A DNA stretch of 45,185 bases, taken from sequence record NC_048064.1, one strand, 5' to 3'. Made by a program: the position numbers and the translations under genes. The notes beneath the pieces are model-generated. The model saw only the letters and a program-made list of their open reading frames with translations. It made no database searches and was not told the origin of the DNA. The number at the start of each line of letters is the position of its first letter. Positions within the stretch are counted from its first letter, which is position 1. Shown one piece after another: positions 1,884 through 38,523 of this stretch. Origin of the DNA: Escherichia phage LL11.

Positions 1884-1896
1884 CACTATAAGAGAA
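1874..1896 (+). promoter_or_regulatory. degenerate phage-RNAP promoter-like sequence (ATTTAGCTGACACTATAAGAGAA)
   Basis: Matches the SP6-type core at -17 to -2 but has A instead of G at the expected +1. Confidence 0.25.
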
Positions 1897-1959
1897 GGCT
1901 TAACAAGGCGTTGCTACGGTAGCGCCTGATTAAACTTTCACTTACTAGGAGTTAAGACT

Positions 1960-2251: not shown

Positions 2252-3178
2252 ATGACTACTGAAAACATCCTCCTCCTGTCTGTCCGTGAAGCTGCAACCG
2301 CTGAGATTAAGCAGCATTTGGATAATATCGGCACTTCTTACATCAAAGTAGGTGCTTGTCTGAATGAGTTACGCGGAGACTTCGAAGGTCAAAAAGAGTT
2401 CTTAGCCTATGTTGAAGCAGAGTTTGCCATCAAGAAGGCACAATGCTACAAGCTGATGAGTGTAGCCCGTGTCTTTGAAGGAGACGAACGCTTTAAAGGT
2501 GTGGCTATGCGTGTAATGCTGGCGCTTGTTCCTTTCGCTGATGAAAATATAATCATGGAGAAGGCCGCAGAACTCGCCGCAGATGGCAAGCTGGACACTA
2601 ATGCCGTAAATGCCTTGATTGACCCTAAGAAAGAGACGAAGGCTGAGACGATACAAACTAAGCCTAAGACAGTAAAACCGCAGGAGAACGCGACTGAGGC
2701 CGCAGAAACTATGCAAGGACATGCAACCTTTGAGGATTTCATCTTAGAGAAGGCGAAAGAGGAATTACAAAGTGTGCCGCCAGCAAGTGAGTCGGGTAAC
2801 GACGAATCCGCACCGTGGGAAGATGAAAGCAAGCCGGAAGACACAAAGGCAGCGCCGCTGGATAACACGGCTAATACTGAGAGTGCCGCTATTGCTGGTC
2901 TGCTGGCACAAATTAAAGCACTGACTGAGCAATTACAGGCAGCAAATGACCGCATCGCCTCCTTAAGTAGCGCACGCGAAAGCAAGAAGGCAGCCGCGCC
3001 TATGCTGCCGCAATTCAAATCTTCCTGCTTCTATGCTCGCTTAGGTTTAAGCGCTGAGGAGGCAACGAAGAAAACAGCAGTTAACAAGGCACGCCGCGAA
3101 CTGGTTAAGCTGGGATACGGTGAAGGCCATGAGGCATGGCCCTTAATCTCTGAGGCAGTAGAAGAGTTGACTAAGTAA
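2252..3178 (+). CDS. hypothetical early protein (about 308 aa) in the position of T7 gene 0.7, no kinase motifs seen
   Basis: Long ORF directly upstream of the RNAP gene; ATG 2252 with AAGGTGA RBS (track start 2243 is a GTG); helical N-terminal domain, acidic low-complexity linker, coiled-coil segment. Confidence 0.6.
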   Translation: MTTENILLLSVREAATAEIKQHLDNIGTSYIKVGACLNELRGDFEGQKEFLAYVEAEFAIKKAQCYKLMSVARVFEGDERFKGVAMRVMLALVPFADENIIMEKAAELAADGKLDTNAVNALIDPKKETKAETIQTKPKTVKPQENATEAAETMQGHATFEDFILEKAKEELQSVPPASESGNDESAPWEDESKPEDTKAAPLDNTANTESAAIAGLLAQIKALTEQLQAANDRIASLSSARESKKAAAPMLPQFKSSCFYARLGLSAEEATKKTAVNKARRELVKLGYGEGHEAWPLISEAVEELTK

Positions 3179-3241
3179 CCTTATCGGTGGCATCTTCTTA
3201 GGTGTCACCTATTAAGGTTTCTTTCACTAGGAGTAAACAAG

Positions 3242-5983: not shown

Positions 5984-6123
5984 CCGTCGGAGACGGAGAG
6001 AGAAGGGAAGATAAGGATATAAAGGAAGTAATAGGTATTAAAGGTTATATAGGTTTACCTAGGAATACCTATTACCTTCTTCCTTCCTCTTATTACTACT
6101 TAGAGGAAGGGCAGACCTAAGTT
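5984..6123 (+). other. structured AT/purine-rich region between tandem phage promoters; candidate primary replication origin
   Basis: Inverted repeat GGAAGTAATAGGTATT ... AATACCTATTACCTTCC, purine-rich arm GGAGAGAGAAGGGAAG facing pyrimidine-rich arm CTTCTTCCTTCCTCTT, small hairpin CCGTCGGAGACGG; flanked by promoters at 5961 and 6145. Confidence 0.35.
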
Positions 6124-6762: not shown

Positions 6763-8747
6763 GCATTATTCAAAACGTTGGTTGTCCTGAGTGCATGAAG
6801 AACAACCACGATAAATCGCAGAACCACTTGATGATTTTCTCCGACGGGGCTGGTTACTGCAACCGTGCACACTTCCATGATAGTGGCAGACCATACTACC
6901 ATAAGCCCGAAGGTGGCATCGAGATAACCGAGTTGCCTATTACTGGCAATATCAAATACACACCTTCTCAATTCAAAGAGATGGAGAAGGAAGGGAAGAT
7001 AAGCGACCCTAAGCTACGCGCCATCGCTCTTGGTGGTATGCGTATGAAAGATCGTTGGGAGGTCATGAATGAGCAAGAAAGGGCAGACCAAGAAGCAGAG
7101 TGGAAACTTGATGTTGAATGGTTCCTCACGCTTAAGCGTAAGAACCTTGTTTCCAGACACATTCGCGGCGACATTTGCGCATTGTATGATGTACGTGTCG
7201 GACACGATGAAGAGGGTAGAGTCTCGCGGCATTACTATCCACGCTTCGAGAAAGGTGAGCTAGTAGGAGCTAAGTGTCGCACATTACCTAAAGACTTTAA
7301 GTTTGGTCATTTAGGTAAACTCTTTGGTATGCAAGATCTTTTCGGTATGAATACTTTGTCTCACGTGTTAGACAAGGGGAGACGAAAGGATTGCTTGCTT
7401 ATTGTGGGTGGGGAACTGGATGCGCTAGCAGCGCAGCAGATGCTCCTTGATTCTGCCAAGGGTACTAAGTGGGAAGGTCAACCTTACCATGTATGGTCTG
7501 TTAACAAAGGGGAGTCTTGCCTTGAAGAGATTGTGCAGAACCGTGAACACATCGCCCAATTCAAGAAGATTATTTGGGGCTTCGATGGGGATGAGGTAGG
7601 GCAGAAGCAGAACCAGCAAGCGGCTCGCCTGTTTCCTGGCAAATCCTATATCCTTGAGTACCCTTCTGGTTGCAAAGATGCCAACAAGGCATTGATGGCT
7701 GGCAAGGCTAAAGAGTTTGTTGATGCATGGTTTAATGCCAAGTCATCTGATGAAGTCTTTGGTAGCCAGATTAAATCTATCGCATCTCAAAGGGATAAGC
7801 TCAAGGCTGCACGTCCAGAGCAAGGACTATCATGGCCTTGGCCTAAGCTGAACAAGGTAACGCTAGGTATTCGTAAGAACCAGCTTATCATTATAGGTGC
7901 AGGCTCTGGTGTAGGTAAGACTGAGTTCCTTCGTGAAGTAGTTAAGCACCTCATTGAAGAACACGGTGAATCTGTAGGCATCATTTCTACAGAAGACCCG
8001 ATGGTCAAGGTGTCCCGTGCTTTTATCGGCAAGTGGATTGATAAGCGTATTGAGTTACCGCCAACCAACGACCCGAAAGAAGATGGATACCGTGAGGTGT
8101 TCGACTACACCGAGGAAGAAGCTAACGCCGCCATTGATTATGTAGCTGATACAGGTAAGCTGTTTGTGGCTGACCTAGAGGGTGACTATTCGATGGAAAA
8201 GGTAGAGCAAACTTGCCTAGAGTTTGAGGCTATGGGCATTTCTAATATCATCATTGATAACTTAACGGGGATTAAATTAGATGAGCGTGCTTTTGGTGGG
8301 AAGGTTGGTGCACTTGATGAATGCGTCAAGCGGATTGGTACTATCAAAGACAGACATGCAGTTACTATATTCCTTGTATCACACCTTACACGTCCTCCGG
8401 CAAACCGTACCCAACACGAAGAAGGTGGCGAGGTTATCCTTTCTGACTTCCGAGGCTCAGGAGCTATCGGATTCTGGGCATCTTACGCCTTGGGGATTGA
8501 GCGTAACACAAGAGCTGAAACGCTTGATGAAAGAACTACCACGTACATCTCATGTGTCAAAGACCGCGACCAAGGTATCTGGACTGGAACCAAGGTCATG
8601 CTTAAGGGTGACATTCAAACCGGACGTTTAATGGAACCACAAGCCCGTACTAAGTCATTTGATACAGGTGAAGCAAGGCAACAAGAAGTGCCTGATTTAC
8701 CGGACACTATAGAAGAGACTAACTTCGATGAAGAAAGTGAGTTTTGA
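6759..8747 (+). CDS. DNA primase/helicase (T7 gp4-like)
   Basis: 662 aa; N-terminal zinc motif CPEC...C..AH, Walker A GAGSGVGKTE, DnaB-like C-terminal half; acidic C-terminus ending ...EESEF. Confidence 0.9.
   Translation: MSIIQNVGCPECMKNNHDKSQNHLMIFSDGAGYCNRAHFHDSGRPYYHKPEGGIEITELPITGNIKYTPSQFKEMEKEGKISDPKLRAIALGGMRMKDRWEVMNEQERADQEAEWKLDVEWFLTLKRKNLVSRHIRGDICALYDVRVGHDEEGRVSRHYYPRFEKGELVGAKCRTLPKDFKFGHLGKLFGMQDLFGMNTLSHVLDKGRRKDCLLIVGGELDALAAQQMLLDSAKGTKWEGQPYHVWSVNKGESCLEEIVQNREHIAQFKKIIWGFDGDEVGQKQNQQAARLFPGKSYILEYPSGCKDANKALMAGKAKEFVDAWFNAKSSDEVFGSQIKSIASQRDKLKAARPEQGLSWPWPKLNKVTLGIRKNQLIIIGAGSGVGKTEFLREVVKHLIEEHGESVGIISTEDPMVKVSRAFIGKWIDKRIELPPTNDPKEDGYREVFDYTEEEANAAIDYVADTGKLFVADLEGDYSMEKVEQTCLEFEAMGISNIIIDNLTGIKLDERAFGGKVGALDECVKRIGTIKDRHAVTIFLVSHLTRPPANRTQHEEGGEVILSDFRGSGAIGFWASYALGIERNTRAETLDERTTTYISCVKDRDQGIWTGTKVMLKGDIQTGRLMEPQARTKSFDTGEARQQEVPDLPDTIEETNFDEESEF
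8695..8717 (+). promoter_or_regulatory. phage RNAP promoter inside the 3' end of the helicase gene
   Basis: ATTTACCGGACACTATAGAAGAG. Confidence 0.65.
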
Positions 8748-8767
8748 TTAGTGTATTTATCAGGGCT

Positions 8768-8785
8768 TGTCTCACATGTGAGACA
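8768..8785 (+). repeat. hairpin palindrome (family copy 3)
   Basis: TGTCTCACATGTGAGACA, 21 nt after the helicase stop. Confidence 0.7.
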
Positions 8786-8823
8786 GGCTCTTATTAAGTA
8801 CATTAAATAACTGGAGATTGATT

Positions 8824-9736: not shown

Positions 9737-9902
9737 ACATAGTCTTAAAATGTTCGATGGTCATGAAGACCTGCAAGCCAAGATTACTAACCAAGCCTTC
9801 CTGTTCGCACAGTTAACTATGGCTGAAGCAAAGAAGAATAGCCTGACGCGTGAACAGGTTATCAAGGAAAGTGAAGTGAAACGTAAGATTCGCAGTCGAT
9901 AA
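9726..9902 (+). CDS. hypothetical small protein (58 aa)
   Basis: ORF overlapping the previous stop; MQNKHSLKMFDGHEDLQAKITNQ...; start uncertain (internal ATG 9750 possible). Confidence 0.3.
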   Translation: MQNKHSLKMFDGHEDLQAKITNQAFLFAQLTMAEAKKNSLTREQVIKESEVKRKIRSR

Positions 9903-9911
9903 GTCAAGGGT

Positions 9912-9929
9912 TGTCTCACGTGTGAGACA
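9912..9929 (+). repeat. hairpin palindrome (family copy 4)
   Basis: TGTCTCACGTGTGAGACA with extended GGG/CCT flanks, directly after the stop at 9902. Confidence 0.7.
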
Positions 9930-9962
9930 GCCTTTCATCATATTGATTGGAGGATTAACTTT

Positions 9963-10509: not shown

Positions 10510-13042
10510 TTGGAAAGAATTTGGAAAGAATCGCATACTTGTCATGGATGCTGAAAGTAAAGGTTTGCTTGATGCCATACGCTATGGTCATCGTGAAGAT
10601 GTGCACATCATTTGCTGCATGGACTTGCTCACCACGGAGGAGTTCCTATTCTTCGACCCATATGAGATGCGTGACCCTGAGGCAAGGGAACGCCTGAAGG
10701 AGTGGGAAGGCCATCAAGACGGAACCTTGGTTGATGGTGTTAACTTCCTGAAGCATTGTGAAGCTATTGTGTCACAGAACTTCCTAGGATATGACGGTCT
10801 TCTCTTTGAGAAAGCATTCCCTGATATCTGGAAAGGCTTTAATTATACCGAGAAGCGCGGCAAGGGCAGACTCCGTGCCGACCTGTGCCCTATCCGTGTT
10901 GTCGACACGCTGGTGATGAGTCGCCTGTTAAACCCCGATAGACGCCTTCCTCCGCAAGCATATGCCAAAGGTATGGGTAACGTCACCCCTCACTCAATTG
11001 AGGCGCACGGCATCCGTATAGGTCGCTATAAACCGGAGAACGAGGACTGGTCTAAACTAACTGACCACATGGTTCACCGTGTACGTGAGGACGTGGCGAT
11101 TGGTCGTGACTTGTTCCTCTGGCTCTTTAACGGGGAATGGATGGAGCACAAACGCCGTGGCGTGAATAAACGCACGGGCCTAGGCATTGAGACAGCCTTC
11201 CACATGGAGTCCATTGTGGCGCTGGAGATGAGCCGTCAGGCCGAGCGCGGGTTCCGTCTGGACATCGACAAGGCTTTGGCCCGATGCGAAGAATTGGACG
11301 CTAAGATTGATGAGACAGTCGCAGCGTTCCGCCCTCACATGCCTATGCGTATCAAGTCTAAACCTTTTAAACCGGAAGAAAAGAATGAAGTATGCCAACG
11401 CGCAAATGAGTATGGAGCTAGCAACAATATACCTACTGTCCTTGACCCCTCACACTTTCTTCATGCCGAGAGACGAGGAGATCGCAAGACAGTATGGAGT
11501 GTCACTACTAAGTCTGGTGATTGGTCGGCTAGTGTCAAGAAAGACTTTCCTCACCTTAGAGGAAACCGTAATGACACGCCAAGTATCAAGTGGATTGGCG
11601 CTTACTCGCCTGTTACTTTCGAAGAGATTCCCTTGGGTAACAGGGATACAGTTAAGCAAGTGCTCTATGATTATGGATGGAAAGGTGTTGAATTTAACGA
11701 TACCGAGCAAGCGCATCTCGATGAGCACGGAGTGTTACCCAAACCTTGGAGTGGTAAGATAAATGAAAAGTCCCTTACTTTATGGCAAGAAAGAGCCGCA
11801 CGTGAAGGTAAAACAGTCCCTGATTGGTGCTTGGGTATCGCTGCATGGTACATACTCGTATCCCGTCGTGGTCAGATACTCAACCGTGGTGACGTTGAAG
11901 CCTTCAACGAGAAGGGAACGTGGCCCTCGCAGGCTGGTGTACGAAAGTGTCGCGGCCTTGTACCTGTAGCATTCAACAAGGAGCTAGGAATCAATGCGCA
12001 GCAATACTACGAGAGGTACGGATGTTGGCCTACGTCTGACAAAGATGACGGAGAGTGGCGTGTTCCAGCTGTTGCTATTAGCATTGGCACTTCTACGTTC
12101 CGTATGCGTCATCGTAACGTGGTCAATATTCCTGCCCGTGGCTTGTATCCTTTACGTGATTTATTCATAGCAGGGAAAGGCAAGCTAATCCTTGGTTGTG
12201 ACGGTGCAGGTCTTGAACTGCGTGTCCTGTCTCACTTCATGAATGACCCTGAGTACCAAGAGATTGTACTGCACGGTGATATTCATACGCATAACCAGAT
12301 GAAGGCTGGTCTTCCTAAGCGTGATATGGCGAAGACGTTTATATACGCCTTCCTCTATGGCTCTGGTATAGCCAACCTTGCAGCAGTATGTGGTGTTACT
12401 GAGGAAGAAATGAAGGAAGTTGTGGCAAGATTCGAGATTGAACTGCCGTCTCTTGCACGTCTTCGTGAGAATGTTATCGCACAAGGTAACAAGTTTGGCT
12501 ACCTGCAAGCACCTGATGGGCATTGGGGTCGCATCCGCATGTCTGGTGGTGAACTTAAAGAGCACACGATGCTTAACGTATTACTCCAGATGACTGGCTC
12601 TTTGTGTATGAAATATGCATTAGTCAAGGCATTTGCAGTAATGCGCAAGGAAGGTGTAGCCTTGGATGCTATGGGAAATCCTTGTGGTGTGGCTAACGTG
12701 CATGATGAAATCCAGATGGAAGTTCCTGAAGAGGAGGTCTTGTATCTTAACTACGACCTACCTTTCACCTTAGAGGGGTTCGAAACAGAGAAGGCTGCCG
12801 TGCAAGCAGTGTTCGATGCAGAGGAGAAACGTGTTCATGTGGATTCTGAAGGACGTATGTGGTCTGCTGCAAACCTCGTTAGTGTTGATGCTGATGCTGG
12901 TGTATTGCATTGCCAGCGCCGTTATCACCGTGCAGGTCATATCATTGCCGACGCCATGACTTGGGCAGGGCAGTATCTGAAGATGCGTTGCCCGATGGCA
13001 GGCGAATATAAGATTGGCGCAAGTTGGAAGGAAACACACTGA
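10496..13042 (+). CDS. DNA polymerase (family A, T7 gp5-like)
   Basis: 848 aa; motifs GLELRVLSHFM, GDIHTHNQ, KTFIYAFLYGSG, HDEIQMEV correspond to T7 DNAP pol motifs; N-terminal exonuclease region with acidic residues. Confidence 0.93.
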   Translation: MLDVDWKEFGKNRILVMDAESKGLLDAIRYGHREDVHIICCMDLLTTEEFLFFDPYEMRDPEARERLKEWEGHQDGTLVDGVNFLKHCEAIVSQNFLGYDGLLFEKAFPDIWKGFNYTEKRGKGRLRADLCPIRVVDTLVMSRLLNPDRRLPPQAYAKGMGNVTPHSIEAHGIRIGRYKPENEDWSKLTDHMVHRVREDVAIGRDLFLWLFNGEWMEHKRRGVNKRTGLGIETAFHMESIVALEMSRQAERGFRLDIDKALARCEELDAKIDETVAAFRPHMPMRIKSKPFKPEEKNEVCQRANEYGASNNIPTVLDPSHFLHAERRGDRKTVWSVTTKSGDWSASVKKDFPHLRGNRNDTPSIKWIGAYSPVTFEEIPLGNRDTVKQVLYDYGWKGVEFNDTEQAHLDEHGVLPKPWSGKINEKSLTLWQERAAREGKTVPDWCLGIAAWYILVSRRGQILNRGDVEAFNEKGTWPSQAGVRKCRGLVPVAFNKELGINAQQYYERYGCWPTSDKDDGEWRVPAVAISIGTSTFRMRHRNVVNIPARGLYPLRDLFIAGKGKLILGCDGAGLELRVLSHFMNDPEYQEIVLHGDIHTHNQMKAGLPKRDMAKTFIYAFLYGSGIANLAAVCGVTEEEMKEVVARFEIELPSLARLRENVIAQGNKFGYLQAPDGHWGRIRMSGGELKEHTMLNVLLQMTGSLCMKYALVKAFAVMRKEGVALDAMGNPCGVANVHDEIQMEVPEEEVLYLNYDLPFTLEGFETEKAAVQAVFDAEEKRVHVDSEGRMWSAANLVSVDADAGVLHCQRRYHRAGHIIADAMTWAGQYLKMRCPMAGEYKIGASWKETH

Positions 13043-13158
13043 TGGATAGGCTTGACATTGTTTACCTATTCTTCACTTTCTTTCTTGCACTCCTTATGCT
13101 TGCTTGTTATGGGAGTATGAGACTAGATATACCTGATGAAGAAGAGGGTTACGACTAA
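13042..13158 (+). CDS. hypothetical small hydrophobic peptide (38 aa)
   Basis: ATG overlapping the DNAP stop; MDRLDIVYLFFTFFLALLMLACYGSMRLDIPDEEEGYD. Confidence 0.2.
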   Translation: MDRLDIVYLFFTFFLALLMLACYGSMRLDIPDEEEGYD

Positions 13159-13256
13159 TGCAAACTGCTTTTATTATTCTTGGTATCATATTATTTATGG
13201 TAGTATTCTGGGCTTTCTCTGGCATTGACCCAGATTGTGATGGTAACTACGACTGA
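13158..13256 (+). CDS. hypothetical small hydrophobic peptide (32 aa)
   Basis: MQTAFIILGIILFMVVFWAFSGIDPDCDGNYD; its stop is followed directly by the conserved box at 13257. Confidence 0.2.
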   Translation: MQTAFIILGIILFMVVFWAFSGIDPDCDGNYD

Positions 13257-13297
13257 GTTATACTCAAGGTCACTTACGAGTGGCCTTTATGAATAAC
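13257..13297 (+). promoter_or_regulatory. conserved stop-adjacent element GTTATACTCAAGGT-hairpin-GCCTTTATGAAT (copy 1)
   Basis: Identical 14-nt 5' box and 12-nt 3' box as at 31217-31260, flanking a different hairpin (GGTCACT-TACG-AGTGGCC). Confidence 0.5.
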
Positions 13298-13324
13298 TTA
13301 TTCCTACTTATTTTGTCTAACATG

Positions 13325-13347
13325 ATTTACTGGACACTATAGAAGGA
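13325..13347 (+). promoter_or_regulatory. phage RNAP promoter
   Basis: ATTTACTGGACACTATAGAAGGA; leader hairpin CCTAGACAATCTAGG follows. Confidence 0.75.
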
Positions 13348-13411
13348 AAGCCTAGACAATCTAGGTTTATAAGGTAGTATAGGTAATTAAGTAAATATAG
13401 GAGAGATAAAT

Positions 13412-13789
13412 ATGTCTATGGTAACTACTCTGGTATTCGTAGCTCAATACTTTCGTGGTCTTGCTAATAAGTTCAAGTCCAAGGCTATCAAAGCTATTGA
13501 GGCTCGCATCGAAGCAGTACAGTCAGAGCAAGTTAAAGTTGAAGAACATCGTAGTTCTCAAATGATTGACTGTCATAACCGCCACTATGCATCTCGTGAT
13601 GAACTAAATGCACGTCAAGTCAAAGAGGTAGAAGATATGCTGGCACGTCACCAGCAAGAGCGTGACAGCCTGAAAGCTGAATTTGAAGAGAACAAGGCAT
13701 CCATCGCCCTTGTACATCAAGCCGCATCTGACAGCCTGAAGAAAGAGATTGTTATGCTGGAAATTGAGTTAGACAACCTGACCAAATAA
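13412..13789 (+). CDS. hypothetical coiled-coil protein (125 aa)
   Basis: ORF track; AGGAGAG RBS; hydrophobic N-terminus then charged helical sequence. Confidence 0.5.
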   Translation: MSMVTTLVFVAQYFRGLANKFKSKAIKAIEARIEAVQSEQVKVEEHRSSQMIDCHNRHYASRDELNARQVKEVEDMLARHQQERDSLKAEFEENKASIALVHQAASDSLKKEIVMLEIELDNLTK

Positions 13790-13810
13790 TTACGGGACAC
13801 TATAGAACAA
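13788..13810 (+). promoter_or_regulatory. phage RNAP promoter with conserved structured leader
   Basis: AATTACGGGACACTATAGAACAA, then a 22-nt hairpin and the 13-mer TGATTGTGTAGTG shared with the promoter at 18117. Confidence 0.7.
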
Positions 13811-13866
13811 TAGGTCGGCTTAGTTCGGCCTATGATTGTGTAGTGTAACAATAGGAGACTAAATAA

Positions 13867-14673
13867 ATGGCACGTGGTGATTTTGATTTTGGTGCTCAGG
13901 TTACTAAAGCTGAAGGTAAGGTTTTTAAGAACCCTGAAGTTGGTGATCATGAAGCAGTAATCTCTGGCATCATTCATGTGGGTTCCTTCCAAGATATCTT
14001 TAAGAAAGGTAATACCACTGAAGTTAAGAAGCCAGCAAACTTTGTTCTTGTTAAGATTGTACTGATGGGTGACGACGACAAGAACGAAGATGATTCTCGC
14101 ATGGAACAGTGGATGGCTGTGCCTCTGAAGTCTGGTGACAAGGCAACCTTGACTAAGTTCCTGAATGCAGTTGACCCTAAAGAGCTGCTTGGTGGTTTCG
14201 ATGACTTCATCGGTGAATGCCTGACTGCAACTATGGTTGGCTCTGGCGACAAGAATGATGATGGTACTTTCAAGTATGTTAACTGGAAAGGCTTTGGCGG
14301 TATGCCTGATAAGTTGAAGAAGCTTGTACTGGCTCAGGTAGAAGAGGAAGGTCTGTCTATGACAGGTCATATCACCTTCGACAAGCTGACCAAAGAAATC
14401 CTTGATGACATTCCTGCTAACTTGGTGCGTCAATACTTCCTTAATGAAACACCTCGTGGTAAGAACCTGTCTGTTGCTGGTTCTCACGTAGAAGCAATCA
14501 TTAAAGCTGCTCGTGAAGAAGACCCAGAGTGGAAGAAAGCCAAGAAGAAAGATGACGAGGATGCTACTCCAGCTAATCGTAAATCTCTGGATACTGGTGA
14601 GCCTGTTCCACAGGAAGTACCTGAAGCAGAAGATACTCCTGCACCGGAGATGGATGAGGACGCGGAATATTAA
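13867..14673 (+). CDS. putative ssDNA-binding protein (gp2.5-like) with acidic C-terminal tail; function uncertain
   Basis: 268 aa; own strong promoter and RBS; codon usage typical of highly expressed genes; C-terminus ...EAEDTPAPEMDEDAEY resembles acidic aromatic-terminated tails of T7 replication proteins; located between DNAP and exonuclease. Confidence 0.45.
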   Translation: MARGDFDFGAQVTKAEGKVFKNPEVGDHEAVISGIIHVGSFQDIFKKGNTTEVKKPANFVLVKIVLMGDDDKNEDDSRMEQWMAVPLKSGDKATLTKFLNAVDPKELLGGFDDFIGECLTATMVGSGDKNDDGTFKYVNWKGFGGMPDKLKKLVLAQVEEEGLSMTGHITFDKLTKEILDDIPANLVRQYFLNETPRGKNLSVAGSHVEAIIKAAREEDPEWKKAKKKDDEDATPANRKSLDTGEPVPQEVPEAEDTPAPEMDEDAEY

Positions 14674-14682
14674 GGAGAAAGG

Positions 14683-14901
14683 ATGAAAGTACAAATCGTA
14701 ACCCTGCACTGCAAGAAAGGTATCACAACGCTCGGAGGTGGCACTTTCCACTCTTTCTCCGAAGGGGAGATTTATGCTGACCTGCACTACATCTGGCGCG
14801 ACGGACAGCACGTGGTGAACTACAGCGACCCAGCTACGGGGAAACGCCACGGCGTATCGCTTCCGGCACATGACATTGCTCAGGTGAACACAGTTTTATA
14901 A
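14683..14901 (+). CDS. hypothetical protein (72 aa)
   Basis: ORF track; AGGAGAAAGG RBS. Confidence 0.5.
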   Translation: MKVQIVTLHCKKGITTLGGGTFHSFSEGEIYADLHYIWRDGQHVVNYSDPATGKRHGVSLPAHDIAQVNTVL

Positions 14902-14902
14902 A

Positions 14903-14918
14903 GTCTCACGTGTGAGAC
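14903..14918 (+). repeat. hairpin palindrome (family copy 5)
   Basis: GTCTCACGTGTGAGAC, 2 nt after the stop at 14901 and 16 nt before promoter 14934. Confidence 0.7.
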
Positions 14919-14933
14919 AAATCGGTGTCCGGT

Positions 14934-14956
14934 ATTTACTGGACACTATAGAAGAG
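14934..14956 (+). promoter_or_regulatory. phage RNAP promoter (exact window consensus)
   Basis: ATTTACTGGACACTATAGAAGAG. Confidence 0.8.
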
Positions 14957-15006
14957 AAGAATTTTAATCGGCGATAATGCCATAACCAACAAAAGGAGAA
15001 TTTAAT

Positions 15007-15378
15007 ATGTTCAAGATTGAAACTATCGTAAACCGTGTTGTTAAAGGTGCTGCTCTGGTATCCGTTGAGTCTTTCATTATCGTCGATGAAGCTGATCAAC
15101 TGGTAGCTGGTACTAAGGCTTACGATACCCGTGAAGAAGCTCAGGCTAAGATTGACAGCATGGGTAACTTCGCTGCTGGTCTGGAGTTCGCTCGTGCTTG
15201 CTTCCCTGAGCAGGCTGACAAAGCTCAGATTGGTAAGGCTAATATCGTAGCTGAATATCTGGATTGGGTTGCTGCTGGTAAACCAGTGAAAGAAGTTAAG
15301 GCTGCTGAAGAAGCTGAAGCTCCAGCAGAAGAAGTAGCTGCACCGGAAACTCCGGTAAGCGAAGAGGAAGAATTTTGA
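15007..15378 (+). CDS. hypothetical highly acidic protein (123 aa) ending ...EEEEF
   Basis: Monocistronic unit: consensus promoter at 14934, AAAGGAGA RBS, terminator at 15437; codon usage like highly expressed genes; acidic C-terminal tail ending in Phe. Confidence 0.6.
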   Translation: MFKIETIVNRVVKGAALVSVESFIIVDEADQLVAGTKAYDTREEAQAKIDSMGNFAAGLEFARACFPEQADKAQIGKANIVAEYLDWVAAGKPVKEVKAAEEAEAPAEEVAAPETPVSEEEEF

Positions 15379-15436
15379 TAATAGCAGGTGTTGCCTCTGT
15401 TAGTCCTGGTTGACTATCACGCTCACCTCATCTAAT

Positions 15437-15470
15437 GCCCTGTCTGCCTTAGTGTAGGCAGGGTCTTTTG
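15437..15470 (+). terminator. rho-independent terminator
   Basis: GC-rich stem-loop CCCTGTCTGCC...GGCAGGG followed by TCTTTTG. Confidence 0.65.
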
Positions 15471-15495
15471 CGTAATAGTTATTGGAGAATGAATT

Positions 15496-15786
15496 ATGCC
15501 GACTATTGAAGAACGTTTCCTGATTCACGTAAGCTTCTCGCCCATACATCTTGGTTATCTTATCACTATTCTATTAGGTGAAGAGATCTATCTGCATAAC
15601 TACTTAATACCAGAGTATGTATGCCGTCGAGATAAGATACACCCTGCTAATTGGGCGAGAGAGTGGTTGCGTGAACATGTGCTGAAGGAGTGGCCTACAT
15701 GCGACCAAACTTCGACTTCGGAGCTACAGTATCGGAAGACAATAATCTCATCCTGTGGCCAACTGAAGGTAATCGAATCGCTTTAA
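15496..15786 (+). CDS. hypothetical protein (96 aa), overlaps exonuclease start
   Basis: ATG 15496 with GGAGA RBS; C-terminal third overlaps the exonuclease gene in another frame, so the real extent is doubtful. Confidence 0.3.
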   Translation: MPTIEERFLIHVSFSPIHLGYLITILLGEEIYLHNYLIPEYVCRRDKIHPANWAREWLREHVLKEWPTCDQTSTSELQYRKTIISSCGQLKVIESL

Positions 15787-16727
15787 TAGACGCTGATATG
15801 TTACCTTACATCGTCGGGTATACAATCAGTGACATGACTTATGTACGAGCTACAACTCGTGTTAAGTCAGGACAAGTCCCATCAATCAAAGATACCTCTG
15901 AGTGTAAGCAAGCGTGTGACCGTGTGAACTCCTTGCTTAACTCTTGGGTGTATGCAGCAGAGTGTGATGCAGCTAAGTTATTCATGACGAAGTCAGAAGC
16001 TAACTTCCGTGTCCGCCTAGCATTCACCAAACCTTATAAAGGTCAACGTAAGACCGAGAAGCCTCCATTCTTCTATGAAATGCGAGAGCATCTCTTAGAG
16101 GTTCACGGTGCAGTCTTGGCAGATGGAGATGAGGCCGACGATCTCATGAGCATTGCACAATGGGATAGCCATCGCCGCTTCCAGCAAGATACAGGCAACG
16201 AGTTCCCTATCGGTAGTCCAGAGCATAAAGCATTCTCTGATACTTGCATCGTTTCCTTGGATAAGGATTTGATGATTGTACCCGGTTGGCATCTTCAGCC
16301 GGGAGGTGAGAAGAAATGGGTAGAACCTATGGGTTGGCTTGAGTTACGCCGCAAGGCTAATGGTCAAGTCAAAGACCTAAAAGGTGCTGGCCTCATGTTC
16401 CATTATGCACAGATGGTTATTGGTGATGATATTGATAACTATGCTGGCATACCTGGACGTGGTGCTAAATACGCCTATGATCTTCTCAAAGATTGTAAGA
16501 CAGAGAAAGAGTTGTACATGGCAGTGCTTGGTGCTTACAAGGCTAAGTTCGGACATGGACAAGTTAAGATTAAGAATTACCGAGGTGGTTATCGTATCGG
16601 CAAGGCTTTTGACCTGATGCTCGAATGTGGTCGCCTAGCTCACATGGCAAGATTCAAAGGTGATATATGGCGAGCCGATAAGAACCCAATCTTGTGGGGA
16701 GATGATGCGGAATGGTTAGCAAATTAA
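15699..16727 (+). CDS. 5'-3' exonuclease (T7 gp6-like, FEN family)
   Basis: ATG 15699 with AAGGAG 8 nt upstream (track start 15690 is a GTG); N-terminal acidic motif IALIDADMLPY, DGDEADD, GDDIDNYAGIPG. Confidence 0.75.
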   Translation: MRPNFDFGATVSEDNNLILWPTEGNRIALIDADMLPYIVGYTISDMTYVRATTRVKSGQVPSIKDTSECKQACDRVNSLLNSWVYAAECDAAKLFMTKSEANFRVRLAFTKPYKGQRKTEKPPFFYEMREHLLEVHGAVLADGDEADDLMSIAQWDSHRRFQQDTGNEFPIGSPEHKAFSDTCIVSLDKDLMIVPGWHLQPGGEKKWVEPMGWLELRRKANGQVKDLKGAGLMFHYAQMVIGDDIDNYAGIPGRGAKYAYDLLKDCKTEKELYMAVLGAYKAKFGHGQVKIKNYRGGYRIGKAFDLMLECGRLAHMARFKGDIWRADKNPILWGDDAEWLAN

Positions 16728-17122
16728 AATCATCGGAGGTAGCAGCTTATAAGAGGGAATTGCTAGAGAAGCAAGGATGGAAGTGCCCCCTATGTGGCGG
16801 CAGTCTCAAGGCTGTTACTCCTATAAACCGTGTACTTGACCATGACCATGAGACAGGATTCTGCCGTGCTGTTGTATGCAGAGGGTGCAATGGTGCAGAA
16901 GGAAAGATTAAGGGTGTTATCTCTGGTTATGGTAAGGCTGGTAACAACCGTTACTTCCAGCTTCAATGGTTAGAGCGACTATATGAATACTGGAAGTTAC
17001 ATAGTACGCCTCAGACAGATAAGTTATATCACAAACACCAAACGGAGGCAGAGAAGCGCGAGGCTAAGAACCGTAAGGCACGCCTTGCTTATGCAAGAAA
17101 GAAGGAGGTTAAAGTTGGGTAA
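16712..17122 (+). CDS. endonuclease VII-type Holliday junction resolvase (HNH/zinc)
   Basis: 136 aa; CPLCGG ... LDHDHETGFCRAVVCRGCNGAEGKIKG parallels the T4 endonuclease VII zinc-binding/HNH core as I remember it. Confidence 0.75.
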   Translation: MVSKLKSSEVAAYKRELLEKQGWKCPLCGGSLKAVTPINRVLDHDHETGFCRAVVCRGCNGAEGKIKGVISGYGKAGNNRYFQLQWLERLYEYWKLHSTPQTDKLYHKHQTEAEKREAKNRKARLAYARKKEVKVG

Positions 17123-18122
17123 GCTTCGCAGCTTGTACAAAGACTCCGAGGTACTTGATGCAATCGAGCAAGCTACCGACGAGAAAGGTAATGTTAATTA
17201 CAATGAGATGGCACGTGTATTATCGTGTCACCCTGTGGGTAAGAAGATTACCCGCCAGTTGGCTCGATACTGGCATGGTCAATTCAAGAAGACCAAGAAG
17301 AATGGTGATTATTACCAGACTCTTCTGCAAGAAGATAAGCGTATCAAAGAAGAGCGTAAGCTCAGGACTCCTGACCGCTACGAGGATTTGGCTATTGTGC
17401 CATTGCCTGACTCGCCTCATCGAAGTGTACTGGTGATCCCTGATACTCATGCACCTTATGAGCACCCAGATACCCTAGAGTTCCTTGCAGCCGTGGCAGC
17501 ACGTTACCGTCCAGACACAGTGGTACACCTAGGAGATGAGGCAGACAAACATGCCCTGTCATTCCATGATTCGGATCCAAATTTGGACAGTGCTGGCATG
17601 GAGTTAGAGAAAGCTCGTGTCTTCATGCACAAGTTGCACAAGATGTTTCCTGTGATGCGCCTGTGTCACTCTAATCACGGCTCTATGCACTTCCGTAAGG
17701 CAAGCGCCAAGGGTATTCCAGTGCAATATCTTCGTACCTACCGAGAAGTCTTCTTCCCGCAGGGAGGTGGCGACCAGTGGGATTGGCAGCATACGCATGT
17801 ACTTGAGTTGCCGAATGGCGAACAGGTGGCATTCAAGCATCAACCTGCTGGCTCGGTCCTAGCAGATGCAGCGCATGAGCGTATGAATCTTGTGTGTGGT
17901 CACTTGCATGGTAAGATGTCTGTGGAGTACGCACGTAATACACATGAACAGTATTGGGCTGTGCAGGGTGGCTGCTTAATTGATGAGTCATCCCGTGCAT
18001 TTGCCTATGGGCGTGAGTCTAAATACAAGCCAGCATTAGGTTGTGTGGTTATTCTGGAAGGTGTGCCTCATATTGTCCCGATGCAAACCAATAGCAACAA
18101 TCGCTGGATTGGTAAGATTTAG
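17115..18122 (+). CDS. metallophosphoesterase (calcineurin-like phosphatase)
   Basis: Motifs VIPDTHAPYEH, HLGDEAD, CHSNHG, CGHLHG; start taken as TTG 17115, 6 nt after AGGAGG (in-frame ATG at 17208 is the alternative); the track start 16983 overlaps the resolvase gene. Confidence 0.7.
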   Translation: MGKLRSLYKDSEVLDAIEQATDEKGNVNYNEMARVLSCHPVGKKITRQLARYWHGQFKKTKKNGDYYQTLLQEDKRIKEERKLRTPDRYEDLAIVPLPDSPHRSVLVIPDTHAPYEHPDTLEFLAAVAARYRPDTVVHLGDEADKHALSFHDSDPNLDSAGMELEKARVFMHKLHKMFPVMRLCHSNHGSMHFRKASAKGIPVQYLRTYREVFFPQGGGDQWDWQHTHVLELPNGEQVAFKHQPAGSVLADAAHERMNLVCGHLHGKMSVEYARNTHEQYWAVQGGCLIDESSRAFAYGRESKYKPALGCVVILEGVPHIVPMQTNSNNRWIGKI

Positions 18123-18139
18123 TTGACACTATAGAACAA
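18117..18139 (+). promoter_or_regulatory. phage RNAP promoter, SP6-like variant
   Basis: ATTTAGTTGACACTATAGAACAA overlapping the phosphoesterase stop; followed by hairpin AGGGCAGG-TACTAG-CTTGCCCT and the shared 13-mer TGATTGTGTAGTG. Confidence 0.7.
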
Positions 18140-18190
18140 AGGGCAGGTACTAGCTTGCCCTTGATTGTGTAGTGAATGGAGGAATTAATT

Positions 18191-18661
18191 ATGTCAAATA
18201 TTGATATTGGCGAATACGTCGTACGCCGTGCAGCTTACCGAGATGCCAACTGGAATAAACTGTGTGAAAGCTTAAACAAGAAACCAGATGAGGTATTCAA
18301 AGTATCCCGTGCAGAACCTAATTATAACTCTATCATGTTAGAAGGTGTGGAGAAGCGCGAATGGTATGCACCTTACTTCAAGGTTGTTGACTCATTGCAA
18401 GGTGAAGATCCTGACACGTTGGACAACAATATGGTTACTAAACCAAAACACTACGAGTTCTTTGATGGCGTAGAGGCAATCACTATCATTGCCCGCAGTA
18501 TGACTGAAAAGCAATTCGCTGGGTACTGCATGGGTAATGCCCTTAAGTATCGCCTGCGTGCGGGTAAGAAGTTCAATACTGAAGAAGACCTGAAGAAAGC
18601 AGATTACTACAAAGAGTTATTCCAGAAGCATCGTCACGAATGTATTGATGAGGATATTTGA
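18191..18661 (+). CDS. hypothetical protein with DUF3310-like C-terminal region
   Basis: ATG 18191 with GGAGGA RBS; C-terminal PKHYEFFDGVEAITIIARSMTEKQFAGYCMGNALKYRLRAGKK pattern recalls DUF3310 phage proteins (from memory). Confidence 0.5.
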   Translation: MSNIDIGEYVVRRAAYRDANWNKLCESLNKKPDEVFKVSRAEPNYNSIMLEGVEKREWYAPYFKVVDSLQGEDPDTLDNNMVTKPKHYEFFDGVEAITIIARSMTEKQFAGYCMGNALKYRLRAGKKFNTEEDLKKADYYKELFQKHRHECIDEDI

Positions 18662-18662
18662 T

Positions 18663-19610
18663 ATGAATATCTTTGAGTTCCTAGGTCTTCCAGAAGATCA
18701 CCGCAATCACCCATTCATGCTGGTGAAGCATCGCGGTGAAGTTCCTGAGAAGAAATTAACTTTTCCATGTTATGCACAGGTGAAACGAGATGGAATATTC
18801 AGTGCTGTTGTGGTGCGCAATGATGGTGCTGTTGCCATCTTTGGTCGTACTGGTAAGAAGCTCGCAAATGTTGAATCCTTGGAAAAGACATTTAGTGTAT
18901 TTCCTGTCGGGTTGTATCTTGGTGAGTTGCAATCTATGGCTGTTGATGTTTATCTTGAAGCTCTGTCAGGAGTGGTAAACCCTAATCGTACAGAGCCACT
19001 TGACTTCATAGGCCAGCAGATTAAAGACAACCTGTATATCGACTTCTTCGATATATTAACCATTAAGGCATTCCATGATGGATTCACTGATGTTTCTTAT
19101 CTCAAACGTTACGATGCTTTACATCGTCGCATCGGCGCTCATCTTAGCGGGTACAACGCTATCCTTCCTATTACTCCTTGCCATAATGAGCGAGAAGTTG
19201 AAGCGTTTGCGCAAGAGCAGATAGACGCAGGCCGAGAGGGTGCTGTATTCAAACTGGACTGCGATTATGAAGCAGGCCACAAAGGTTATCGTCAGACTAA
19301 AGAAGTCCGTAAGGTAACTTATGACCTTACTTGTATTGGCTTTGAAGAAGGTAAAGGTAAGTACAAAGGTAAGGTAGCTAACCTCATTTTCAAATGGAAA
19401 GGAGGCAAGACAATCAAAGCTATGCTCGGTAAAGGGTGGACTCATGCAGATGCAGAACAGATGTTCCACGATATTAAACATGGCGGACGATTGAATGTCA
19501 TTGGTAAAATCTTTGAAGTCAAAGGTCTTCAGGATTCAAGCAAGGGCAACATTCGTCTGCCCAAAGCGGGAGAATTAAGACATGACAAAGATGAACCAGA
19601 TTTCTTTTGA
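18663..19610 (+). CDS. ATP-dependent DNA ligase
   Basis: KxDG adenylation motif (AQVKRDGIF), further nucleotidyltransferase-like blocks; start ATG 18663 with GAGGA RBS (track start 18645 is a TTG). Confidence 0.8.
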   Translation: MNIFEFLGLPEDHRNHPFMLVKHRGEVPEKKLTFPCYAQVKRDGIFSAVVVRNDGAVAIFGRTGKKLANVESLEKTFSVFPVGLYLGELQSMAVDVYLEALSGVVNPNRTEPLDFIGQQIKDNLYIDFFDILTIKAFHDGFTDVSYLKRYDALHRRIGAHLSGYNAILPITPCHNEREVEAFAQEQIDAGREGAVFKLDCDYEAGHKGYRQTKEVRKVTYDLTCIGFEEGKGKYKGKVANLIFKWKGGKTIKAMLGKGWTHADAEQMFHDIKHGGRLNVIGKIFEVKGLQDSSKGNIRLPKAGELRHDKDEPDFF

Positions 19611-28272: not shown

Positions 28273-31215
28273 ATGGCAATTGAACGTCAAGCTGTACAAG
28301 GTTTAGAAAGAGTACAGTCAAGGGTCGCGCCAACACCTATGTCTTTCACACCACGACAAGTGAGTATCTCAGGGGGCGCTGATGCCTCCGGTAGTAGATT
28401 TTTGGAAGACTTAGTAAACGCCGCAAGTAGTGTGGCTGATGTCACTACTGCTATCCTTAATCAGCAAGTAGAAGACGATAAGGTTCGCCAGATGGATAGG
28501 GCTTTGTCTGGCATGATGCCTTCTGAGGATGCCACGGTAGGCGGTGCTCGTGCTCATATGCTGGTTAGTTTACAAAATGATGTAATCTCACAGACAACTG
28601 CGCTACAAGCAGAAGCACAGCGATTTCAAGGTAGTGACGAGGATTGGGAAAACTATGTAGTTCAATCTCGTAATGAGGTACAAAATAGGTTATGGCAAAG
28701 TTATCCAGAGCTTCGTGGTGACAAAGATTCTATGAGGCTTGTCACTAACGCGTTCATGGAGCAGCAACCTAGAATTACTGCAACTAGAGCAGAGGCTAAA
28801 CTTCGTCAAGAAGAAGAAGCACGAATGCAATCTATGCAGTCTCGTATTATCATGGCTACAAGGGACGTAGCGCCAGATGCCACTGGTGCAGCTCTTATCC
28901 AGCTACAAAAAGAAGCACTGGCGATGGGTCTTAGTAAACCTGAGTTTGATCAAATGGTTGCTAAGATTGCATCTGAAAGAGCGGCAGTAGGAGATGATAG
29001 TCTTATTCAGGGAACCAAGGCATTGGTGGATGATAAGGGTGTCTCTTTGTATGACCGTGTTGGTGCTTTGCAAACTGGAGAAATTCAAGCTAACAGAACT
29101 TGGGCTGCTCAGAATCAGGTTGCCCTCTTCGAGAAGAAAGATGCAGCTATAAAGGCATTCGATGCAGGGCAACTTACTCGCGAAGAGTTACTTCAGGTGA
29201 TGCAGAATCACAATGAATTGACTGGTGGCACTGCTTGGTCTGATAGCGAGATCAAGGCTATCTTCGATAGGCAAGCTAAGGTTAATGCAGAGAAAGCAAA
29301 GCTAGAAGATCTTATTGCACGAGGTGAATCTGGGTCACCTTTAGGCTTACAGGACATTAGTAAGGATGACAGAAAGACATATGCTGAAGCCTTAGTTAGT
29401 ACCTACACTAAGCTGGCAGAAGATGAAATTGCCCGTACTGGTGCAACGGGAGAACAGGCTGAAGCTATTCGCGGTAGGTATGAGCAGATGCGTTATCTTA
29501 AATTGGGTCAACAGCTTATTGAAGACCCGATCATTAAGGAAAGGTATTCGTCGCTTATGCAGCTATCCTCTGCCAACCTCAAGGATATGAATGTTGAACC
29601 TGAAGCACTGCAAACTATCATGCGAGCACGTGATTCTATTCCAGAGGATGCACGTCGTGCTGTTATGGGAGACAAAGAATATGCCTTTGTTGAGAACTAT
29701 GACTTAGCAACTCGCATGGGGTATAACACAGGTCAAGCTATTGAGTTTGCACAGAATGCCTCTCGCGGCGAGAAATTACAAGGTTCTGTGCTCAAAGAAC
29801 TTAATGATGATGTAGATGGAGTAGTTAGTGACATTGCAGGAGGCAGCTGGCTCACTTTTGGTGATAACATGAGTGAAATGGGACGTGACATTATGATGGA
29901 GGAGGCAAGTACAATTGCTAGAGCAATGAAGGTTGCAGGCCATAATAATGACACTATTAAGCGTCACCTTAAATCCTACCTTACAAGCCAGTATACACAA
30001 TTATCAGAAGGTTTCTTTACTCAAGGTGTTCTTGTAAAAGGAGACATTCGTACGTTAGGAGATACTATAGGAGTAAACCAAGGAGACGTCCCAATTACTC
30101 TCCGTCAGTACCTAGATAATAACAAACAAGCCCTGCTAGATGCATCAGGTGGGTTAGAGGAAGGCGACCTATATTTTGATGTAGATGCGAAGCGCGGCCT
30201 CTTTACTATACGTGCAGGCTCTGGTCGTGTGCCTGTTACACAGGCAATGCCTTTGTCTGAAATCAAAGGGCAATCCTTGCTTAAGCAACGGTATGATGCA
30301 GAGGTTAAAGCACGTGATGAAGGGCGTAAGAACTTTGAAGCACAACAAATGCGAATGTGGGGCGCAGGTGGCTACCAAGCACAACCACCTGCAAAGACTA
30401 CAGCCAAAACTGTAGGCTCACGTGGGATTGCTGACTTCTTAATGTCACCTGCCTTTGCATCAGGCGAGAATCTACCAGCAAACTTTGAGTTCGGATATAA
30501 GAGAAATAATATGGACTTCTACAATTATGTAGCCAAGATGGAGAATAATGCCAATGTAGGTTTTGACCGAGTAGCTGGTGTTTATACACCATACAAAGAT
30601 GCACATGGTCAGTCTGTAGGGTACGGTCACTTCCTTACTACTGAAGAGAAGAAGAACGGATACATTATGATTGGTACAGAGAAAGTGCCATTCACTCCGG
30701 GACAATCTCAATTAACACCAGAACGAGCCATGCGCCTTCTACAGCAAGACTTGAAGGGTCATGTGCCAAGTACTTCAGGATGGGCTGTTCCCTTCGAAGA
30801 GATGCACCCAGGTGTTCAGCGTGGCCTTATGGACTTGTCCTATAATTTAGGAAAAAGCGGGATCCAGAATGCTCCTAAGGCATACGCTGCATTTAAGGCT
30901 GGCAAGTTTACTGATGGCTTCATCGAGATGCTATCTACTGCATCTACTGAAGGCAAGCGCAGCACTGGATTGTTAGTTCGTAGGGCGGAAGCTTATAACC
31001 TTGCACAGAGTGGTGGTGCTATCCCTAAGATTAGTGAAGTGGAGACACGAGCAGATGGATCTATGTATGTGAAGTTTGCAGGACAGATGTCAGAGGCTTT
31101 CGTAAATAAATCAATCTACAATCAGATTGGTAAGGATGGGTGGATGCAAGTGTATCCTCCAAAGCAAGGTGCACTTGCACCTGACACTCAGATTGGTAGA
31201 ATCAAACTGAGCTAG
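28273..31215 (+). CDS. internal virion protein B with C-terminal lysozyme-like (muramidase) domain
   Basis: 980 aa; C-terminal region VGYGHFLTTEEKKNGY ... GLMDLSYNLG has the look of a GH24 lysozyme-type domain. Confidence 0.75.
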   Translation: MAIERQAVQGLERVQSRVAPTPMSFTPRQVSISGGADASGSRFLEDLVNAASSVADVTTAILNQQVEDDKVRQMDRALSGMMPSEDATVGGARAHMLVSLQNDVISQTTALQAEAQRFQGSDEDWENYVVQSRNEVQNRLWQSYPELRGDKDSMRLVTNAFMEQQPRITATRAEAKLRQEEEARMQSMQSRIIMATRDVAPDATGAALIQLQKEALAMGLSKPEFDQMVAKIASERAAVGDDSLIQGTKALVDDKGVSLYDRVGALQTGEIQANRTWAAQNQVALFEKKDAAIKAFDAGQLTREELLQVMQNHNELTGGTAWSDSEIKAIFDRQAKVNAEKAKLEDLIARGESGSPLGLQDISKDDRKTYAEALVSTYTKLAEDEIARTGATGEQAEAIRGRYEQMRYLKLGQQLIEDPIIKERYSSLMQLSSANLKDMNVEPEALQTIMRARDSIPEDARRAVMGDKEYAFVENYDLATRMGYNTGQAIEFAQNASRGEKLQGSVLKELNDDVDGVVSDIAGGSWLTFGDNMSEMGRDIMMEEASTIARAMKVAGHNNDTIKRHLKSYLTSQYTQLSEGFFTQGVLVKGDIRTLGDTIGVNQGDVPITLRQYLDNNKQALLDASGGLEEGDLYFDVDAKRGLFTIRAGSGRVPVTQAMPLSEIKGQSLLKQRYDAEVKARDEGRKNFEAQQMRMWGAGGYQAQPPAKTTAKTVGSRGIADFLMSPAFASGENLPANFEFGYKRNNMDFYNYVAKMENNANVGFDRVAGVYTPYKDAHGQSVGYGHFLTTEEKKNGYIMIGTEKVPFTPGQSQLTPERAMRLLQQDLKGHVPSTSGWAVPFEEMHPGVQRGLMDLSYNLGKSGIQNAPKAYAAFKAGKFTDGFIEMLSTASTEGKRSTGLLVRRAEAYNLAQSGGAIPKISEVETRADGSMYVKFAGQMSEAFVNKSIYNQIGKDGWMQVYPPKQGALAPDTQIGRIKLS

Positions 31216-31216
31216 T

Positions 31217-31260
31217 GTTATACTCAAGGTTTGTCTCACATGTGAGACATGCCTTTATGA
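31217..31260 (+). promoter_or_regulatory. conserved stop-adjacent element GTTATACTCAAGGT-hairpin-GCCTTTATGAAT (copy 2)
   Basis: Same flanking boxes as 13257-13297; here the hairpin is the palindrome TGTCTCACATGTGAGACA (31232-31249, family copy 6). Confidence 0.5.
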
Positions 31261-31282
31261 ATGACATTAATTAGGAGGTAAC

Positions 31283-38451: not shown

Positions 38452-38523
38452 AGGCCCAGATAATAAGAGAAAATAATAGGTAATATATAGGTTAACCTAG
38501 GTTATATAGGTATGCCTTAGTAT

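Follow-up and report, generated by a model that had tools for sequence, protein, structure and literature searches.

Two intergenic sites in the genome of Escherichia phage LL11 (NC_048064.1; the whole 45,185-nucleotide [nt] stretch analyzed is called the window here) each join an SP6-type promoter to a hairpin and to an identical 13-mer, TGATTGTGTAGTG, placed ahead of a gene. The 13-mer is the 3' arm of a lower stem for which the promoter core supplies the 5' arm, and it is not an independent box. The extended hairpin that this pairing creates in RNA reading through the promoter is very probably a structure under selection, and the interpretation that we favor, with moderate confidence, is that both sites are promoter-overlapping RNase III processing sites. 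The features of the two sites are as follows.

13788 to 13810, plus strand: site 1 SP6-type promoter from -17 to +6 (AATTACGGGACACTATAG followed by AACAA), a consensus match; -17 to +1 corresponds to 13788-13805, with +1 the G at 13805.
13798 to 13804, plus strand: site 1 lower-stem 5' arm, promoter positions -7 to -1 (CACTATA), pairing with 13839-13845 in both the minimum free energy and centroid folds and by covariation.
13810 to 13833, plus strand: site 1 upper hairpin of 9 base pairs (bp) (AUAGGUCGG and UCGGCCUAU) with a 6-nt loop, from the fold and family covariation.
13833 to 13845, plus strand: site 1 13-mer TGATTGTGTAGTG; T13833 closes the upper stem, UU at 13836-13837 pairs with AA at 13806-13807, and 13839-13845 is the lower-stem 3' arm.
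13867, plus strand: site 1 start codon ATG, read from the sequence.
18117 to 18139, plus strand: site 2 SP6-type promoter from -17 to +6 (ATTTAGTTGACACTATAG followed by AACAA); -17 to +1 corresponds to 18117-18134, with +1 the G at 18134.
18127 to 18133, plus strand: site 2 lower-stem 5' arm, promoter positions -7 to -1 (CACTATA), pairing with 18168-18174 in the fold.
18139 to 18162, plus strand: site 2 upper hairpin of 10 bp (AAGGGCAGGU and GCUUGCCCUU) with a 4-nt loop, from the fold and family covariation.
18162 to 18174, plus strand: site 2 13-mer TGATTGTGTAGTG; UU at 18165-18166 pairs with AA at 18135-18136, and 18168-18174 is the lower-stem 3' arm.
18178 to 18182, plus strand: site 2 Shine-Dalgarno sequence GGAGG, with the start codon ATG at 18191.

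When the RNA is folded from the promoter core instead of from +1, CACUAUA (-7 to -1) pairs with UGUAGUG, AA (+2 and +3) pairs with UU, and the upper hairpin is stacked on top, giving an extended hairpin of about 20 bp (7 + 2 + 9 to 10 bp) that is interrupted by 1x1 and 2x2 internal loops. The box of the window, UGUAGUG, makes one G-U pair against CACUAUA. The read-through sense RNA folded with -23.5 kcal/mol (z score of -5.83) at site 1 and -26.5 kcal/mol (z score of -6.95) at site 2, and 0 of 200 shuffled sequences were as stable, whereas the promoter-initiated RNA, in which the upper stem alone remains, gave -11.2 kcal/mol (z score of -1.95) and -15.9 kcal/mol (z score of -3.17), respectively. 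The antisense strand gave -12.6 kcal/mol at site 1 and -15.0 kcal/mol at site 2, about half the stability of the sense folds. The original prediction had placed the structure in the promoter-initiated transcript; in these folds it is incomplete there and is complete only in the read-through RNA.

The pairing of promoter and box is retained across relatives of the phage. Three routes were used to retrieve loci: searches with the two downstream proteins, a DNA pattern in which promoter positions -7/-8 and the final six bases of the box were unconstrained, and BLAST against deposited phages. Counterparts of the 13-mer were recovered from related genomes, where a search for it had been proposed, together with the promoter and covarying stems, and the resulting alignment contains 30 distinct short copies from five Molineuxvirinae lineages, with several copies carrying apical insertions of 30 to 50 nt besides. 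Standard pairs occupied 97.4% of the pair cells in the 30-copy alignment, compared with 30 to 47% when the partners were slid by 1 to 3 columns. Changes on both sides were found in 8 of the 18 pairs, and none of 500 shuffles reached the observed covariation score; covariation was also computed on a 21-sequence version of the alignment.

Promoter position -7 and the last base of the box were never unpaired in the 30 copies, occurring as C-G in 25, G-U in 2, and G-C, U-A, and U-G in 1 each. The pair is C-G in SP6, K1-5, Proteus PM93-type, and Klebsiella phages. In the Pectobacterium POP72-type genome, which has the promoter core GGACTATAG, the three copies have G-C, G-U, and G-U; the two copies in IMG/VR contig 2706795819, with the promoter core GCTACTATAG, have U-A and U-G. 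The box in most relatives is TGATTGTATAGTG (UAUAGUG), the perfect Watson-Crick complement of CACTATA. The 13-mer is therefore invariant because the promoter is invariant, and it changes when the promoter changes. TGATTGT follows all 36 distinct ACTATAGAACAA contexts, and a promoter lies upstream of 37 of the 39 boxes. Much of the retrieval demanded GAACAA and TGATTGT, so that the invariance of these motifs is partly by construction; it was equally present in the copies retrieved via proteins and BLAST.

The surroundings of the two sites are those of SP6-like phages. The 6 kb around both sites shares 93 to 97% identity with K1-5, K1E, VEc3, and many other Vectrevirus phages (Autographiviridae, Molineuxvirinae). 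The SP6-type promoter core GACACTATAG occurs 12 times in the window, compared with 1.85 occurrences expected by chance, always on the plus strand and with both sites among the 12, and the SP6 genome shows the same promoter pattern. Both sites match the family consensus ATTTAnnnGACACTATAG of promoters for SP6-type single-subunit RNA polymerases at -17 to +1. The standard definition of an SP6 promoter takes the final G of TATAG as the transcript start. By that definition the transcripts begin with GAACAA, and not with TATAGAACAA as had been described; this initially transcribed sequence is found at only these two promoters in the window, most of the others beginning with GAAG.

Other sequence elements described by the original prediction were confirmed on checking the sequence, and their coordinates were accurate: the two sites share GACACTATAGAACAA with zero mismatches between them, the hairpins of differing sequence occupy one register (+6 to +29), and the 13-mer is present in exactly two copies in the window, each at offset +29 from the start, with no further copy at up to 2 mismatches. 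One unrelated TGATTGTAAAT is present at 42697. The hairpin spans 24 nt (9 to 10 bp) rather than the 22 nt first given, its last pair being formed by the first T of the 13-mer. Five of nine stem pairs differ between the two hairpins, three of them on both sides and two as a change from G-U to G-C. Both sites lie on the plus strand between a stop codon and the next ribosome-binding site, with 8 to 21 nt separating the box from the latter, and the stop codons of the upstream open reading frames (ORFs) fall within the promoters (13787-13789 at site 1 and 18120-18122 at site 2). A terminator scan of positions 13000-19000 made no call at either element, and neither has a U-tract, the tails being UAACAAUAGG and AAUGGAGG; on these two grounds an intrinsic terminator was ruled out. 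Without a terminator, and with the upstream stop codons inside the promoters, messages from upstream must therefore read through the whole element. Between the two elements, only one strong terminator-like site is present, an 11-bp GC-rich hairpin followed by CTTTTG at 15437-15464 on the plus strand; it could reduce the amount of RNA that reads through into site 2. An antisense promoter in the box (CACTACACA, minus strand) was rejected on inspection of the sequence, its specificity region at -8 to -12 being mismatched.

In relatives, the cassette precedes not only the gene for a 268-amino-acid protein and the DUF3310 gene but also a homolog of ORF 13412-13789 and unrelated ORFs of 46, 60, 191, and 211 amino acids. 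One hairpin type can be found at differing loci; the AGGGCAG type occupies the site 1 position in Klebsiella phages and the site 2 position in the window, which suggests that hairpins may be exchanged between copies. The element is thus a modular promoter-plus-hairpin cassette of the DNA-metabolism region and not a control device of two particular genes, and its supposed dedication to an SSB-like gene and a DUF3310-like gene falls away. The SSB-like label for the 268-amino-acid protein is likewise unsupported, as this protein has no Pfam match and no sequence relative in the PDB and matches phrog_862, a family of unknown function, while the DUF3310 assignment holds (Pfam E value of 2.8e-25; the PHROGs family name is nucleotide kinase). 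A mechanical ORF call puts the start of the DUF3310/nucleotide-kinase gene at ATG 18176, directly after the box and without a ribosome-binding site; a start at ATG 18191, which GGAGG precedes by 8 nt, is more plausible. Of the proposed post-transcriptional element, there is good support for a conserved RNA structure that covaries and has a role in processing, but not for the box as a recognition sequence in its own right. The apical loop contains a structured insertion of 30 to 50 nt in SP6 (L042 13022-13103 and 17445-17511), K1-5, and several IMG/VR relatives, and the copies with such insertions (also at about 6004 in L039 and in L005, L013, L027, and L036) keep the base of the stem, the lower stem, and the box.

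RNase III substrates span about two helical turns, in which, owing to internal loops, a single strand is cut and a protective 3' hairpin remains; the minimal substrate has at least 11 bp from the cut to the loop, and the proximal box reads GC, AU/UA, AU, AU/UA, with G/C at position 2 being inhibitory (PMC1540722). Both sites form imperfect hairpins of about 20 bp with an internal loop between the upper and lower stems. The three pairs beside the internal loop are G-C, A-U, and A-U in 23 of the 30 copies, as in the T7 site R1.1, and AU, UA, and AU in 7 of the 30, and G/C was found at position 2 of the proximal box in none of them. Several observations weigh against RNase III. The upper stem, at 9 to 10 bp, is at or just under the 11-bp minimum, and one central mismatch is present in the 7-bp lower stem in 14 of the 30 copies; central mismatches likewise occur in the lower stems of T7 in the alignment. 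A T7-only covariance model built from six sites (R0.3, R0.5, R1, R1.1, R1.3, and R4.7) found the correct register but gave 4.3 bits at site 1, 11.5 bits at site 2, and 10.3 bits on the reverse strand of site 2, and the matches on T7 of a core model, R3, built from the variant elements only had E values of 0.5 to 1.8. In addition, GAACAA and UGAUUG of the internal loop are invariant across genera beyond the needs of pairing, which could reflect a different sequence-specific partner or homogenization by recombination between copies.

The low scores of the T7-only model rule out membership of the two sites in the T7 RNase III sequence class AAGGUC...GGCCUUUAUGA. The two best T7 matches of the R3 core model were the upper stems of R1.1 and R0.3, at the E values given above, and this model also matches a canonical SP6 site. 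In our reading, the elements of the window share the architecture of RNase III substrates, form a distinct sequence class, and probably have common ancestry with those substrates in the upper stem. An Rfam scan of the whole window returned no family match at the gathering threshold. A literature search that did not reach Dobbins 2004 or Scholl 2004 returned nothing on RNase III in SP6-like phages, and the GenBank/RefSeq records for K1-5, SP6, and T7 have no RNase III sites annotated.

If the two sites are processed by RNase III, each would be a composite cassette in which an SP6-type promoter is fused to an RNase III-type processing hairpin. Read-through RNA from upstream promoters would fold into the helix of about 20 bp with small internal loops, and the host RNase III would cut it on the 3' side of the internal loop, within UGAUUG (at about 13833-13837 in site 1 and 18162-18166 in site 2). 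Alignment to the proximal box of R1.1 predicts a cut at GAU^UG, and alignment by sequence predicts one at U^GAUUG. The cut would split the upstream message, which would be left with the upper hairpin as a protective 3' structure, from the downstream message, which would then begin 20 to 35 nt ahead of its start codon. Promoter-initiated RNA (GAACAA...) would carry the upper hairpin near its 5' end and, because the 5' arm of the lower stem is absent, is probably a poor substrate or none at all, cut inefficiently or never. We infer RNase III cleavage itself, the position of the cut, and the differing fates of read-through and promoter-initiated RNA from this analysis.

T7 provides the closest parallels for such an arrangement. 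T7 promoters and RNase III-site positions were folded; the RefSeq record is without site annotation, and the positions, including R13 at 27281, are what we take to be the coordinates of Dunn and Studier (1983). A classical two-stem hairpin formed at every one of these positions. Promoters and sites overlap in four ways in these folds: the R1.1 and R1.3 hairpins follow immediately after phi1.1A and phi1.3, the apical loop of R6.5 contains phi6.5, R4.7 extends into phi4.7 with the lower part of its 3' arm, and R13 uses the phi13 core (-7 to +8) as the 3' arm of its stem. Ten RNase cleavage sites are described for T7, in which a promoter combined with a cleavage site is a common arrangement (PMC6938266).

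The phi1.1A/R1.1 and phi1.3/R1.3 pairs resemble the two sites in having the promoter directly upstream, an upper stem of about 10 bp closed by G-C, A-U, and A-U, an internal loop, a lower stem of 7 to 9 bp with occasional mismatches, a 3' flank of ...UGAUUG, and a ribosome-binding site 15 to 30 nt downstream. However, the lower stem of these T7 sites is transcribed from +1 onward, so that promoter-initiated RNA holds the whole site, whereas the 5' arm of the lower stem in the window is promoter -7 to -1, upstream of the start. A further difference is in the internal loops, which are CA/GA plus a G·G mismatch in the window and ACUC/UAUGA in T7. In phi13/R13, as here, the promoter core is paired in read-through RNA and the promoter-started transcript is without one arm, but the T7 complement lies upstream and the promoter is the 3' arm, whereas in the window the complement lies downstream, the promoter is the 5' arm, and an extra upper hairpin is placed between the two arms. 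The 5' stem-loop of the T7 phi10 leader, which stabilizes promoter-initiated mRNA, is likewise a promoter-proximal leader hairpin; it begins at +1/+2 and has no promoter complement downstream, in contrast to the hairpin from +6 seen here and to a conserved downstream box that pairs with bases left untranscribed from the embedded promoter.

Canonical T7-type RNase III sites are present in the same genome. The T7-only model identified them at 13249-13305 (50 bits; E value of 6e-10) and 31208-31273 (34 bits; E value of 8e-6). Weaker matches were found at 9888-9953, 42124-42179, 8744-8809, 2177-2233, 1338-1393, and 3168-3227, these all on the plus strand; nearly all of the weaker matches overall are on the plus strand, and most lie between ORFs. 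The canonical hairpins carry …ACUCAAGGUC…GGCCUUUAUGA…, and the strong sites are conserved in SP6 (L042 12219-12275, 30546-30608, and 41693-41747), from which it follows that the phage family uses T7-style RNase III processing. Like the promoter-fused sites, they are intergenic, lie on the same strand, and combine two stems with an internal loop, the upper stem having AGG...CCU at its base; they differ in scoring 34 to 50 bits with the T7 model, in carrying CUCAAGGUC...GGCCUUUAUGA, and in having no promoter-core fusion. A third element related to the two sites was found in the early region.

1884 to 1950, plus strand: third element, a variant promoter GACACTATAAGAG in a long interrupted hairpin; fold of -27.1 kcal/mol, z score of -4.5.

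This element has the core AACAA-[9-bp stem]-UGAUU, as at both sites, and scored 18.2 bits (E value of 0.044) with covariance model R1. The lowest part of its 3' arm overlaps the Shine-Dalgarno sequence UAGGAG of ORF 1960-2187, and its folding or cleavage could affect translation of that ORF. The SP6 counterpart (L042 about 2114-2175) forms its lower stem from GAUUAA/UUAAUC, leaving the promoter core unused.

The original idea of a leader element, in which the hairpin near the 5' end of the promoter-initiated RNA stabilizes the mRNA and the 13-mer acts in single-stranded form as a translation or stability box for the downstream gene, is unlikely to be the whole explanation. The upper hairpin does form in that RNA, at the z scores given above, 5'-proximal hairpins are also present at other promoters of the window (13333, 23082, and 40101), and the short distance from the box to the ribosome-binding site would suit such a role, which could coexist with RNase III processing. 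However, the last base of the box covaries with promoter position -7, which that transcript does not contain; the leader model leaves the complementarity of the box to the promoter core unaccounted for; and the genes downstream vary among relatives. Protective 5' stem-loops are reported to need very few unpaired nucleotides at the 5' end; this hairpin begins at +6 and leaves 5. Somewhat less probable again is recognition of the extended hairpin through its GAACAA/UGAUUG loop by a partner other than RNase III, such as a phage RNA-binding protein or nuclease or another host RNase. Such a partner would fit the invariance of the loop bases in every copy, including those retrieved via proteins, the contrast with the canonical sites of this genome, whose loops are CUC/UAUGA, and the low scores of the T7-derived model. 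On the other hand, no factor emerged as a candidate; GAACAA doubles as the initially transcribed sequence of the promoter, which may be what constrains it; these very motifs were demanded in much of the retrieval; and RNase III suits both the geometry as a whole and the pairs of the proximal box. It is doubtful, at about the same level, that the element is a Molineuxvirinae-specific switch that senses the origin of a transcript and whose loop is read by a factor other than or besides RNase III. In such a switch, the transcription start would split the structure, so that upstream-derived and promoter-born RNAs would fold differently and meet different fates, and the 3' arm would coevolve with the promoter specificity of the polymerase.

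That the promoter belongs to an inverted repeat also allows for a role at the DNA level, as a cruciform, a protein operator, a promoter modulator, or a promoter-primed replication origin, and the primary origin of T7 is located at phi1.1A/phi1.1B. The stems, however, are rich in G-U pairs (UG in 14 copies at columns 25-38 and GU in 15 at columns 27-36), which become A-C on the opposite strand, and the compensation by G-U at the -7 pair (G-U twice and U-G once) is sensible in RNA alone; the interval from the box to the ribosome-binding site also contains no AT-rich tract resembling an origin. The abundance of G-U pairs and the gap in stability between the sense and antisense folds therefore indicate that the selected structure is the sense-strand RNA and not a DNA cruciform, and a DNA-level function is highly improbable. 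We give equally little credence to the view that the cassette has no function of its own and that a promoter plus leader was duplicated or spread by recombination, with the likeness being inherited. The same hairpin types do occur at differing loci in different phages, but pairing has been kept across at least five families of upper-stem sequence, across the apical insertions, and across changes in promoter specificity, which argues for selection on structure and against inheritance alone.

Complements of the promoter core are also seen downstream of other promoters, some of which may be due to chance: ACACUA/UAGUGU at 8703 (window 8703-8756), GACACUA/UAGUGUC at 36332 (window 36332-36376), and, in SP6, CACTATAGAATAGAAGTATAGTG (L042 39920-39945). 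TGATT is found 34 to 42 nt past ACTATA at 5 of the 12 promoters of the window, in some cases possibly by chance. AT-rich tracts with repeats of (A/T)TAGGT(A/T)A follow the promoters at 5969, 13333, and 38437 (at about 5990-6060, 13365-13400, and 38460-38520, respectively). This motif occurs 18 times in the window, compared with 6.6 occurrences expected, and the tracts are a possible origin or protein-binding array.

Promoter-overlapping RNase III sites are textbook T7 biology, their principle was established decades ago, and no new field is opened by the sites described here. What is possibly new is the use of a promoter core as a 5' arm with its complement downstream, the covariation of that complement with the promoter across five lineages, and the existence in SP6-like phages of a second, non-T7-type class of putative RNase III site. 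If the favored reading is correct, phages of the SP6/K1-5 type would process their polycistronic RNA much as T7 does, with two classes of site, the second of which would have the promoter itself as half of its lower stem. In that class, promoter and RNA structure would be written on the same bases, and the RNA arm would track changes of promoter specificity across genera. Therapy and engineering both make use of such phages, and the SP6 promoter serves as a standard tool; where a promoter cassette is moved with or without its partner arm, the processing of the mRNA and its expression could change.

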